Below, piece after piece: positions 21,272 to 23,729 of a stretch of DNA of 64,000 bases. Numbering within the stretch: the stretch's first letter is position 1; every line of letters begins with the position of its first letter. The DNA comes from Escherichia coli (GTDB lineage: Bacteria; Pseudomonadota; Gammaproteobacteria; Enterobacterales; Enterobacteriaceae), in NCBI RefSeq assembly GCF_003334355.1, contig NZ_QOWP01000018.1. One strand, given 5' to 3'. The notes below the pieces were generated by a model. The model searched no databases and was not told where the DNA came from. It saw only the letters and a list, made by a program, of their open reading frames with translations. Made by a program: the position numbers and the translations under genes.

Positions 21272-21725
21272 ATCCAACTCCTTTATCTTCTGCGTTAAGA
21301 ACGCATGGATACCCGTTGTGAGTGTTTGTGTTGTTATCGTCTGCAACTTTATTGTGCAGTGTTGTGCCTGTTAGGTAACATTTAGTTTGGCTAAATGTAA
21401 AGATATTGCTGTTTTATTGTTTGTTTTTGCGAGATGCGCCGCACCATTCCGAAGCAAAATTCTTAAACCGCACCTTTTTGGTGCTACCGCTGATTTGTGG
21501 TGGTGCAACCCGGTTGCGTCGCGGTTGATTTCATTGCTTACACAGTAAATAAAGCAACTTACATGCCAAAAAATACTTAGAAGTGAATTAATTACGATTG
21601 TAATTTCAGGCTGAAAAAGTCATATTTCGGACAGGGTTAACTTTTCGGTATGGGACGTTTGCCGGGATGATAACTGCACACGGGAAAATTGCTTTTTACC
21701 TGTCTTTTCAAGGAAGAATCATCTT

Positions 21726-23603
21726 ATGTCTGCATCTTCGGTTAAGCCGTTAAATGTTCAATTACCCGCAATAACCCTTATCCTTTTTGCGCTCTGTGTT
21801 GGGATATTTTGTTACCTCGCACAATGGATGAGTTATGAAGAAGTCGATCAATCCGCACTTATCCATCTCGGCGCTAACGTTGCTTCTCTCACGTTGTCGG
21901 GTGAACCCTGGCGTTTATTGAGCAGTGTCTTTCTGCACAGCAGTGTTTCTCATCTGCTGATGAATATGTTTGCATTCCTGGTGGTGGGGGCAGTGGCGGA
22001 ACGGATACTGGGGAAATGGCGACTCCTGATTATCTGGTTATTCTCCGGCGTCTTTGGTGGGCTCATCAGCGCCTGTTATGCGTTACGCGATAGTGAGCAG
22101 ATAGTCATCAGCGTTGGGGCATCCGGAGCAATTATGGGAATAGCTGGCGCTGCGATAGCAACACAGCTTGCTTCAGGTACGGGCACGCACCATAAAAATC
22201 AGCGGCGAGTATTTTCTCTGTTAGGTATGGTGGCGCTGACACTGTTGTATGGTGCCCGGCAAACAGGAATAGATAATGCTTGTCACATTGGCGGCCTGAT
22301 TGCGGGTGGCGCGTTGGGTTGGCTGAGTGCGCGTTTATCTGGGCAAAACCGGCTTGTTACGGAAGGCGGGATTATTGTTGCGGGCAGTCTTCTTCTTACC
22401 GGGGCTATCTGGCTTGCGCAGCAGCAGATTGATGAATCAGTTTTACAGGTCAGGCAAAGCCTGCGTGAAGCGTTTTATCCGCAGGAGATTGAACAAGAGC
22501 GACGACAAAAAAAGCAACAGTTAGCGGAGGAACGCAACGCCCTCAAAGAAACATTACCCGCTCCGGTAAGTCGTCAACAGGCCAGTGGTGATTTGCTCGC
22601 TGAGATTGCCGATATCCATGATATGGCGATCAGTCGGGATGGTAATACGTTATATGCCGCTATTGAAAACACAAACAGCATTGTTGTGTTCGACCTCGGA
22701 CAAAAGAAAATCCTGCATACCTTTACAGCGCCCATAGCGAAAGAAAAGTCAGTCAAACATTGTGGTGGCTGTAAAGATCAGGGCGTCAGATCGCTGGCGT
22801 TAAGCCCGGATGAAAAGTTGCTTTATGCGACTTCATTTGAAGCGAATGCGTTATCGGTCATTAACGTGGCGACGGGGGAGATTATTCAGTCGATTACCAC
22901 CGGTGCACATCCTGACAGCCTTATCCTCTCGCGTGATGGCAAAAAAGCCTGGGTGATGAATCGCACCAGTAATAGTGTGTCAGCGATTGATCTGGTGACT
23001 TATCAGCATGTGGCGGATATCCCGCTGGAGAAATACGACGGGACGGGGACGAGCGGTAAACCTGGTGCCTGGGTTATGGCACTTTCCCCGGATGAAAAAA
23101 CATTGTTGATACCCGGTATGGTCAGAGGTGACATTGTACGCATCAATACCATCACGCATCAGAAAGAAGACTTTCCCGCAGGTGATGCGCGTGGAACGAT
23201 ATCGGCGATGCGTTTTCGACCTGAAAACGGGGATGTAATTTTTGCCGACAGCCAGGGGATTTCACGTATAAGAGTTGGGGATCAGCAAGCCAGCATTATG
23301 ACGCAATGGTGTAGCAGGAGCGTTTATTCCGTTGAGGGTATTAGCCCGGACGGTCAGTATTTAGCGTTGGTGTCATATGGCTTGCAAGGTTATGTCATCC
23401 TGCTCAATATTAATGTCGGGCAGATTGTTGGCGTTTATCCTGCCAGCTACGTTAATCACCTTCGTTTTTCGGCGGATGGTAGAAAGATATTTGTTATGGC
23501 GAAGAACGGGTTAATCCAAATGGACAGGACGCTCTCGCTTGATCCGCAGGCAGTTATTCGTCATCCCCAATATGGCAATGTGGCTTGTATCCCTGAACCG
23601 TAA
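21726..23603 (+). CDS. Rhomboid-family intramembrane serine protease core (about 7 predicted TM helices) fused to a C-terminal YVTN/YncE-like beta-propeller
   Basis: 625-aa ORF with RBS; rhomboid motifs WRLLSSVFLH..HLLMNMF, GASGAIMG (GxSG Ser) and CHIGGLIAG (His); charged linker; about 40-residue repeats such as LSPDEKLLYATS..., ILSRDGKKAWV..., RFSADGRKIFV... Confidence 0.85.
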   Translation: MSASSVKPLNVQLPAITLILFALCVGIFCYLAQWMSYEEVDQSALIHLGANVASLTLSGEPWRLLSSVFLHSSVSHLLMNMFAFLVVGAVAERILGKWRLLIIWLFSGVFGGLISACYALRDSEQIVISVGASGAIMGIAGAAIATQLASGTGTHHKNQRRVFSLLGMVALTLLYGARQTGIDNACHIGGLIAGGALGWLSARLSGQNRLVTEGGIIVAGSLLLTGAIWLAQQQIDESVLQVRQSLREAFYPQEIEQERRQKKQQLAEERNALKETLPAPVSRQQASGDLLAEIADIHDMAISRDGNTLYAAIENTNSIVVFDLGQKKILHTFTAPIAKEKSVKHCGGCKDQGVRSLALSPDEKLLYATSFEANALSVINVATGEIIQSITTGAHPDSLILSRDGKKAWVMNRTSNSVSAIDLVTYQHVADIPLEKYDGTGTSGKPGAWVMALSPDEKTLLIPGMVRGDIVRINTITHQKEDFPAGDARGTISAMRFRPENGDVIFADSQGISRIRVGDQQASIMTQWCSRSVYSVEGISPDGQYLALVSYGLQGYVILLNINVGQIVGVYPASYVNHLRFSADGRKIFVMAKNGLIQMDRTLSLDPQAVIRHPQYGNVACIPEP

Positions 23604-23604
23604 G

Positions 23605-23630
23605 AAAAAGGGGCATGATAATCATGCCCC
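23605..23630 (-). terminator. Intrinsic terminator for lnt
   Basis: Perfect palindrome ggggcatgat-a-atcatgcccc (23610-23630) followed on the minus strand by U5; begins 2 nt after the accessory gene stop. Confidence 0.65.
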
Positions 23631-23694
23631 ACAGCGTGTTGAGAAAGTACGCTTTATCCTACAAAATCACGTAAATTCAACATATTGCAAAAAT

Positions 23695-23727
23695 CGCGTA
23701 GGCCTGATAAGCGTAGCGCATCAGGCA
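23695..23727. repeat. REP element
   Basis: cgcgtaggcctgataagcgtagcgcatcaggca matches the enterobacterial REP consensus. Confidence 0.7.
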
Positions 23728-23729
23728 CA

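Follow-up and report, generated by a model that had tools for sequence, protein, structure and literature searches.

What lies between gltI and lnt in Escherichia coli, and how did strains come to differ there? K-12 had been noted as possessing an IS5 copy but no gene at this place, and comparison of sequences bears this out for K-12-type genomes. In the window considered here, i.e., the whole 64,000-nucleotide stretch of E. coli DNA that was analysed, the same space holds instead a long open reading frame. The initial annotation thus suggested either that IS5 had replaced this gene in K-12 or that the gene had been gained here. The explanation which accounts best for the evidence, and which is held with considerable confidence, is a different one. 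That is, the reading frame is orthologous to Rhom7 of Shigella sonnei and is carried by one of two old alleles of the gltI-lnt spacer (occupied and gene-less), with IS5 a later, independent arrival in the gene-less allele, and with alleles probably swapped between strains.

The gltI-lnt interval

Positions 21272-23729 are exactly the gltI-lnt intergenic interval, bounded by the gltI start codon (as taken from the RefSeq annotation, i.e., the 302-aa form), which ends at 21271, and by the lnt stop codon, which begins at 23730. Here the term occupied is used to describe alleles that carry rhom7, and gene-less to describe those that do not. The parts of the interval, along with the adjoining end of lnt, are as follows.

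21272..21467, minus strand: gltI 5' leader and proximal control region, common to occupied and gene-less alleles
21468..21571, minus strand: allele-linked, diverged distal gltI control region, from alignments and divergence
21572..21725, plus strand: rhom7 5' region, seen in occupied alleles only
21726..23603, plus strand: rhom7 coding sequence, 625 aa, from Pfam, TIGR02276, motifs, AlphaFold model, Foldseek and phmmer
23610..23630, minus strand: putative intrinsic-terminator hairpin of the lnt operon, a 9-bp stem and 3-nt loop, then T5
23655..23729, strand not assigned: variable spacer with REP element (about 23698-23728), from multi-copy matches and right-flank comparison
23730..23746, minus strand: allele-specific last lnt codons, i.e., the right junction, from comparison of Lnt C-termini

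The reading frame is as initially annotated, ending with a TAA at 23601-23603, and 6 nt past that stop there is indeed a palindrome, its stem perfect. The orientation proposed for this palindrome, as terminator of lnt, holds as well, with TTTTTCTTAC following the stem on the minus strand and with no T-run on the plus strand. The same hairpin would also close the convergent rhom7 transcript region, and equivalent GC-rich hairpins are found between the rhomboid gene and lnt at Klebsiella loci. At its other end, rhom7 possesses a ribosome-binding site, AAGGAAG, 8-14 nt before the ATG, and a TTTTCA(A/G/T)GGAAGAA block is kept upstream of the Klebsiella homologues. A scan for sigma70 promoters upstream of rhom7 found no convincing site and no strong consensus.

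Nothing around the gene suggests mobility. As the initial annotation had it, IS ends, transposase, integrase and flanking repeats are absent, with only chance matches of 12-28 nt seen when direct or inverted repeats or a target duplication were sought at the gene, and with no target duplication in alignments of both occupied-allele junctions. The only neighbours are gltI and lnt, and GC, at about 45-53%, is not anomalous, so what is found is not what describes a mobile element or genomic island. A scan against Rfam returned SroC only, located outside of the interval. Toward lnt, the 23655..23729 spacer has approximately 49 bp extra relative to E. coli W and ATCC 25922. Positions 2387-2456 of the interval, as query, have many chromosomal matches in each genome, and in many occupied genomes the alignment reaches query position 2384 only.

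A rhomboid protease with a propeller

Judged by sequence, the product of this gene is the E. coli orthologue of S. sonnei Rhom7 (SSON_0610). Two S. sonnei proteins (P0025 and P0032) match it at 95% and 94% identity over 100% of length, and its N-terminus agrees with the Rhom7_Ss sequence printed in Fig EV1 of PMC7232013. With Rhom7 it also has in common the same length class, Ser133/His187, seven predicted TMDs and a C-terminal domain, differing as an E. coli allele would, i.e., by 5-6% substitutions. The gene as such is therefore no discovery, since rhom7 is already known, is RefSeq-annotated, and has been experimentally characterised as Rhom7 in S. sonnei.

In that work (Liu et al., EMBO J 2020, PMC7232013), a model substrate built on TatA was cleaved by Rhom7, with S133A and H187A mutants inactive and with the C-terminal domain plus TM7 dispensable for model-substrate cleavage, as seen with deltaTM7 and deltaCTD constructs (PMC7232013). 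When over-expressed, S. sonnei Rhom7 cleaves TM segments of orphan respiratory-complex subunits (HybA, FdnH), licensing their degradation; at native Rhom7 levels in S. sonnei, cleavage was not detectable, and a double rhomboid deletion in that organism gave no phenotype (PMC7232013). The text of PMC7232013 does not use 'propeller' for the C-terminal domain, nor does it mention the gltI-lnt presence/absence polymorphism, and no paper was found that deals with rhomboid, gltI and lnt together.

The gene appears to be a single-gene unit whose product would combine a rhomboid protease with a C-terminal propeller. The first half is predicted to be a 6+1-TM rhomboid intramembrane serine protease, with Ser133/His187 as the putative dyad. 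Residues 59-201 match PF01694 (E=2.3e-28; model positions 2-140 of 143), and the rhomboid domain proper, with its 7 TM helices, covers residues ~13-233. Found there are W62-R63, H71/H76/N80, GASG with Ser133, and His187, and over 18 homologues G131, A132, S133, G134, H187, W62, R63, H76 and N80 are invariant, with H71 nearly so. An AlphaFold model (pLDDT 81) displays 7 TM helices plus propeller, i.e., predicted core helices at 15-34, 74-95, 97-121, 131-149, 152-178 and 184-203, then a seventh at 209-233, with residues 237-625 following. Hydropathy scanning puts 5 of the 7 helices (TM1-4 and TM7) above threshold.

Beyond the seventh helix there is a helical linker (237-276) and then a YVTN beta-propeller (289-600). 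The TIGR02276 YVTN repeat is matched at 59 bits (cut-off 27.85; E=3e-16). By phmmer, the C-terminal 345 aa match 1L0Q (E=5.6e-27) and YncE (3VGZ; 3e-6), and Foldseek gives the 1L0Q YVTN propeller as best, followed by seven-bladed G-beta/WD40 propellers. In the predicted model, residues 289 to 600 form ~28 strands; blades would number seven, a figure that comes from the fold matches rather than from counting on coordinates. 1L0Q (a Methanosarcina surface-layer protein) and YncE are soluble or surface-layer domains, whereas in Rhom7 an intramembrane protease is joined to the propeller. Nor is Rhom7 a YncE equivalog, scoring 35 bits against a cut-off of 400. Because the seventh helix would carry the chain across the membrane, the propeller is predicted to be periplasmic, as suggested by helix counting in the predicted model together with four conserved cysteines. 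Once there, it may serve in recognition of substrates or partners, or instead in regulation.

Fusions of this general kind are seen elsewhere. The GluP/YqgP rhomboids of Bacillus subtilis have 6+1 TMs and a C-terminal TPR domain outside of the cytoplasm, and many of the rhomboid-domain matches at 35-45% identity are to GluP-named TPR fusions. The logic of the two types is the same, that is, a rhomboid core, a seventh helix, and an extracytoplasmic repeat domain. They differ, however, in that Rhom7 has a YVTN beta-propeller in place of TPR and is without an N-terminal cytosolic domain. GlpG, the E. coli prototype (MEROPS S54), likewise has the WR, HxxxxHxxxN, GxSG and H...GxxxG motifs and the six-helix core, but its six TMs come with a cytoplasmic domain at the N-terminus, whereas in Rhom7 the N-terminus is short and there are, in addition, a seventh TM and 390 aa of C-terminal region. 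That the protein might be GlpG itself was considered and rejected, given scores of 45 bits where the cut-off is 250 and of 41 where it is 335 (TIGR04239 / NF008155), i.e., it is a rhomboid, but not GlpG. In Shigella, GlpG and Rhom7 have HybA in common as a substrate (PMC7232013).

Occupied, gene-less and IS5-bearing spacers

Among 5426 complete E. coli genomes, gltI-lnt is occupied in 3232 (~60%). A 396-bp gene-less spacer without IS5 is found in 1834 (~34%), O157:H7 included, and the K-12 type, i.e., gene-less spacer plus IS5 junction, in 351 (~6.5%). The initial annotation had raised the prospect that most references carry the reading frame at the same place; this is so for the majority, though not for K-12, which is without the gene. 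Ten of 11 occupied copies that were fetched are intact, with that of E. coli W frameshifted. One further protein (P0036; 78% identity, 554 aa) was considered as an intermediate lineage and rejected, since it is encoded on a contig from E. coli with a flank identical to that of the window; P0036 probably is a damaged or chimeric copy.

Since K-12-type genomes combine IS5 with absence of the gene, it was reasonable to propose that the K-12 ancestor had rhom7 and then lost it through IS5-mediated deletion. The junction sequences refute this, leaving it with next to no probability. The K-12-type IS5 is 1195 bp long with intact ends, is flanked by a 4-bp TTAG target duplication, and on both sides is continuous with the gene-less spacer. 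Because that duplication sits within the gene-less spacer, ~100 bp upstream of gltI, IS5 did not replace the gene; it simply inserted into the 396-bp gene-less spacer, the same spacer as is found without IS5 in the 1834 genomes. In window coordinates the target TTAG is 21371-21374, which is in the part of the spacer common to both alleles and 200 bp away from the point at which occupied and gene-less alleles part. Beyond IS5, all 292 bp of the gene-less allele are still found in K-12, inclusive of a 151-bp stretch to which nothing in the occupied allele corresponds, and the same layout is seen in E. albertii, Salmonella and Citrobacter. K-12 is without rhom7, that is, as a carrier of an old gene-less allele rather than as a consequence of removal by IS5.

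Age and origin of the two alleles

Where the alleles part can be followed outward from gltI. The first 196 bp (21272-21467) are 100% identical between the window and the gene-less strain ECCTRSRTH03, and diverge by 0-4.6% across Escherichia. Over the next 104 bp (21468-21571), divergence of the window from the E. coli gene-less allele is 39%, although values of 39-50% in so short a non-coding stretch are near saturation and alignment-dependent. Over these same 104 bp, three E. coli occupied alleles differ among themselves by 2.9%, and differ from the occupied alleles of E. whittamii and EC7003 by 7.7-9.6%. This is the last stretch that can be aligned with gene-less spacers, and 21572..21725 has no counterpart in them. 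A breakpoint at 21516 was dropped, as the word-size-7 BLASTN that gave it saw the first 245 bp only; by global alignment, weak homology between occupied and gene-less alleles extends to about position 300 of the interval, i.e., through a sigma54-type element. On the right, the difference is limited to the last ~17 nt of lnt, with Lnt ending ...SLRARKR* in occupied and ...SLRQRRK* in gene-less alleles, E. albertii included.

Within the diverged 104 bp are an NtrC-like site (~21470-21486, CGCACCTTTTTGGTGCT), in the distal gltI control region, and the sigma54-type -24/-12 element (the reverse complement of ~21556-21571, TGGCATGTAAGTTGCT), which from consensus and conservation may function at gltI. 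gltIJKL is an NtrC/sigma54 operon (PMC4987338, PMC4066584). The gene has a fixed chromosomal site, directly beyond the gltI NtrC/sigma54 control region and reaching into the last lnt codons.

As to age, occupied alleles of E. coli, E. whittamii and Escherichia sp. EC7003 have one insertion site, Lnt C-terminus and lnt-adjacent right flank in common, and E. fergusonii has the same insertion site along with the occupied-type Lnt C-terminus. Synonymous divergence of rhom7 equals that of its flanks, whether E. coli copies are compared with each other or with those of E. whittamii and EC7003 (dS of 0.16-0.22 versus 0.12-0.25 for lnt/gltI, same pairs), and with a dN/dS of 0.17-0.25 the gene is constrained. 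Homologues of 50-57% identity also stand at gltI-lnt in K. aerogenes, in a K. oxytoca-complex relative and in a Lelliottia/Leclercia-like genome, and on a Citrobacter freundii-complex contig with gltI on one side and a short ORF fragment in the expected place of lnt. These gltI-lnt-site homologues make up a single clade, which is separate from the homologues found at other loci.

Presence in some E. coli strains and absence from others, along with absence from 73 of 80 related species representatives, might be viewed as recent horizontal acquisition by one strain or lineage of a small genomic islet. Such acquisition is very improbable, however, given that the gene is at one site in most complete E. 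coli genomes, with dS as in the flanking core genes, the same junctions in several Escherichia species, ordinary GC, and no mobility genes or repeats. The suggestion that the gene was gained here survives, that is, for deep time only, as the gene-less spacer is collinear in E. coli, E. albertii, Citrobacter and Salmonella. It does not survive as a recent gain by this strain, since occupancy is the majority state, divergence is in step with the flanks, and same-site homologues exist in other genera.

Alternatively, rhom7 could be ancestral to Enterobacteriaceae at this locus, with gene-less spacers representing deletions, whether many losses or one loss allele that spread. The single clade of same-site homologues (Citrobacter, two Klebsiella lineages and another genus) is in keeping with this, as is the ratio of rhom7 to Lnt amino acid divergence within Escherichia (~8% versus 2%), which extrapolates roughly to the 45-50% observed between genera. 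But gene-less spacers are collinear across genera without heterogeneous deletion scars, and no rhom7 remnants were found in those compared. The Lnt C-terminus RQRRK is common to the gene-less alleles of E. coli and E. albertii, as is a specific terminator hairpin. Among the GTDB species loci with lnt, 80 in all, the 73 are gene-less, 2 have the gene, 1 has some other gene, and in 4 the gltI side is incomplete or degraded. In addition, the Citrobacter copy is placed with Klebsiella and not with Escherichia (neighbour-joining, 8 ingroup sequences, saturated distances), and a relative-rate check, also on saturated distances, gives no acceleration in Escherichia. Tree and rate check would be better explained by lateral exchange, or by deep lineages of the alleles, than by plain vertical descent with losses, and ancestry followed by loss is considered unlikely, if with some real chance of being correct.

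Preferred instead are two old alleles that probably are swapped between strains via homologous recombination in conserved flanks, rather than by a mobile element. The step from 0% divergence over 196 bp to 39% over 104 bp, window versus gene-less strain, is the signature of such recombination. Two orders of events may fit, either ancient insertion followed by long-lived polymorphism or transfer between genera by homologous recombination. A more specific reading, tentative and rather doubtful, is of a very old presence/absence polymorphism across species and possibly genera, predating Escherichia speciation and kept by selection. It is suggested because the insertion-linked flank differs by 39% between E. 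coli alleles versus 30% between E. coli and Salmonella gene-less spacers; recombination would then have homogenised everything beyond ~100 bp.

If that reading were true, selection could act through a condition-dependent cost and benefit of a periplasm-exposed propeller-protease, e.g., if phages or colicins use it as their target, or if it takes part in the quality control of anaerobic respiratory complexes. It could act instead by way of NtrC/sigma54 control of gltIJKL, were this altered by the insertion. The insertion adjoins that control region, and the region differs sharply between the two alleles. More immediately, rhomboid work in K-12, which has GlpG only, misses a second rhomboid that is present in most E. 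coli strains, and the propeller of that rhomboid, predicted to face the periplasm, offers a handle for finding native Rhom7 substrates or partners.

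The gltI-lnt interval and its gene

The interval and its immediate neighbors are arranged as follows.

ending at 21271, minus strand: gltI start codon (302-aa form, as in the RefSeq loci)
21272–23729: gltI-lnt interval, the exact space from gltI start codon to lnt stop codon
21726–23603, plus strand: rhom7 ORF, 625 aa, TAA at 23601–23603
23610–23630: hairpin, perfect 9-bp stem with 3-nt loop
23730–25268, minus strand: lnt

The interval displays 100% identity with that of E. coli ECONIH4. Its description in the initial annotation holds, that is, as a space with a single long ORF whose stop is found 6 nt before a perfect palindrome. 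The palindrome was also correctly viewed as having the orientation of an lnt operon terminator, as a T-run is present beside it on the minus strand only. Nor, as had been claimed, is there a mobile-element signature: the rhom7 ORF has neither a transposase nor an integrase beside it, and no repeat of note flanks it. A TTG start for gltI (327 aa; 20363–21346, minus strand), taken from a mechanical ORF list, was rejected in favor of the ATG ending at 21271 because of RefSeq annotation and because the sequence upstream is conserved as a non-coding leader. The gltI-gltJ spacer carries the SroC sRNA (20205–20367, minus strand; Rfam RF00369, 170.8 bits), as expected for the operon. REP number varies between rhom7 and lnt among ‘occupied’ alleles, meaning those with rhom7 in the spacer (23655–23729), with the window there ~49 bp longer than E. 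coli W and ATCC 25922, and with two REPs in E. whittamii.

The gene has been described and annotated before, as Rhom7. This name was given to SSON_0610 of Shigella sonnei by Liu et al. (EMBO J 2020; PMC7232013), who describe a rhomboid that is active, uses Ser133 and His187 for catalysis, and has, besides seven TMDs by prediction, a C-terminal domain. A TatA-based model substrate is cleaved by Rhom7, with TM7 and the C-terminal domain dispensable for that cleavage, and orphan HybA and FdnH are cleaved by plasmid-expressed Rhom7, native expression in S. sonnei being too low for detectable cleavage (PMC7232013). Database proteins of S. sonnei are 94–95% identical to the window protein over its full length, and the Rhom7_Ss sequence of Fig EV1 (PMC7232013) agrees with its N-terminus, which together identify the ORF as the E. 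coli orthologue of Rhom7.

The N-terminal part of the product is a match, at E=2.3e-28, to the Rhomboid domain of Pfam, with the catalytic serine at residue 133 in GASG and the catalytic histidine at 187. Invariant or nearly so among 18 homologues are W62-R63, H71/H76/N80, and a GG..G motif past His187. An identity as GlpG was ruled out (45 bits vs. a 250-bit cut-off). The C-terminal part, not termed a beta-propeller in PMC7232013, matches YVTN/YncE-type beta-propeller profiles. An AlphaFold model (mean pLDDT 81) consists of seven transmembrane helices, a helical linker (237–276), and an all-beta domain (289–600). The latter finds its top fold and sequence match in the YVTN propeller of Methanosarcina surface-layer protein 1L0Q, with seven-bladed G-beta/WD40 propellers next. 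Given the modelled 6+1 helix arrangement, this domain should face the periplasm, a placement with which its four conserved cysteines are consistent. Another rhomboid and beta-propeller fusion, 32% identical (P0056; L094 6001–7992), is found near queG- and yjeF-like genes, a locus unrelated to this one, with similar fusions in Pseudoduganella. This architecture thus is present outside Enterobacteriaceae, but not at gltI-lnt.

Allele states and the IS5 of K-12

With occupancy defined as at least 80% of the interval being found in one place, 3232 of 5426 complete E. coli genomes are occupied. An intact 396-bp gene-less spacer is seen in 1834, the gene-less spacer with a K-12-type IS5 junction in 351, and nine, by difference, are unclassified; O157:H7 is gene-less without IS5. 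The statement that K-12 possesses an IS5 and no gene here was right: an IS5 of 1195 bp, with a TTAG duplication, resides ~100 bp upstream of gltI in the K-12-type locus (L001 3104–4298). The idea that this IS5 replaced the gene was wrong. Its target is equivalent to window positions 21371–21374, within sequence common to all alleles, and on its far side the remainder of the gene-less spacer is intact. The IS5 therefore entered an already gene-less spacer. A published K-12 NtrC ChIP peak for gltIJKL (688381–688461) falls in the spacer part beyond IS5, therefore placing this IS5 between the NtrC/sigma54 region and gltI.

On the left side, occupied and gene-less alleles can be aligned from the gltI ATG through a sigma54-type -24/-12 element, past which no alignment between them was found. 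In gene-less spacers this element reads TGGCAC(G/A)TCTATTGCT, a sequence conserved across Escherichia, Citrobacter, and Salmonella apart from one or two substitutions where the L005 and C. amalonaticus spacers are concerned; the window has TGGCATGTAAGTTGCT, the reverse complement of ~21556–21571. The first 196 bp of this alignment are identical between the window and a gene-less strain, and the next 104 bp are 39% divergent, more than the 30% seen across the same columns between gene-less E. coli and Salmonella or Citrobacter. An NtrC-like site together with the sigma54-type element, the latter conserved from E. coli to Salmonella, lies within 21468–21571 of the gltI control region, and the 39% difference falls exactly in this NtrC/sigma54 region. 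On the right side the allele difference extends into lnt, with Lnt ending ...SLRARKR* in occupied and ...SLRQRRK* in gene-less alleles, E. albertii included, and with polymorphism back to normal levels ~17 nt into lnt. Occupied and gene-less alleles are thus separate haplotypes whose linked region is very narrow, as would be expected if homologous recombination continually exchanges the flanking core sequence.

Age and spread of the two alleles

One genome was scanned per GTDB species with Lnt, as summarized below.

Spacer content among the 80 loci returned
73: gene-less spacer, ~355–890 bp (Citrobacter, Salmonella, Klebsiella, Enterobacter, Kluyvera, E. albertii, others)
2: rhom7 present, 92% aa identity (E. 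whittamii, Escherichia sp. MOD1-EC7003)
1: different gene in spacer (Superficieibacter electus)
4: no gltI in fetched stretch (3) or degraded lnt/gltI matches (C. koseri)

Gene-less spacers are collinear between genera, and the gene-less allele thus looks ancestral in form. The spacer has received other insertions too: in S. electus a multi-pass membrane ORF of 434 aa that runs on the same strand as lnt (L070 7734–9038) and, in another enterobacterial genome (L033 7540–8420), a long tandem REP-like array.

The occupied allele is also old. Its insertion site, Lnt C-terminus, and right flank beside lnt are common to E. coli, E. whittamii, and EC7003 (i.e., MOD1-EC7003), and in E. fergusonii the insertion site is the same and Lnt has a C-terminus of the occupied type (RARQR). 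Synonymous divergence of rhom7 is 0.16 to a B2-type strain and 0.22 to E. whittamii and EC7003, equal to that of lnt and gltI for the same pairs (0.12–0.25). The idea of a gene ‘gained here’ thus stands in deep time only, and not as a recent gain. With dN/dS of 0.17–0.25 vs. 0.02–0.04 for its flanks, rhom7 is constrained, if less tightly than they are. An intact 625-aa rhom7 is present in 10 of 11 fetched occupied copies, the exception being that of E. coli W, annotated as a frameshifted pseudogene (L084 3455–5331). Several large clusters of shortened versions (434–514 aa, tens to hundreds of members) were returned by protein search, suggesting that the gene has been inactivated repeatedly in some lineages. 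A 554-aa, 78%-identical protein (P0036; L088 6001–7665), from an E. coli-like contig with a gltI-side flank identical to that of the window, probably represents no separate lineage but a copy that is damaged or chimeric.

In Klebsiella aerogenes, a K. oxytoca-complex relative, and a Lelliottia/Leclercia-like genome, homologues with 50–57% identity are found at gltI-lnt, in the same orientation and just past the same sigma54-type element. A contig of the Citrobacter freundii complex makes a fourth, with gltI on one side and, toward lnt, a short ORF fragment. This places a rhom7-type gene in three further genera, with the Citrobacter contig confirmed on the gltI side only. The gltI-lnt homologues form one clade, apart from 24–33% relatives that are found elsewhere in the genome or are known from sequence without context. 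One ancient insertion followed by long-lived polymorphism may underlie this distribution, or instead the gene may have spread between genera through homologous recombination. Within the clade Citrobacter groups with Klebsiella, not with Escherichia, and a relative-rate check found no acceleration in Escherichia, a combination which hints at some lateral exchange or at deep allele lineages. To the already known Rhom7 are added here the allele structure of its locus, the independence of the K-12 IS5, and the identification of its C-terminal domain as a YVTN propeller, with a probable exposure to the periplasm.
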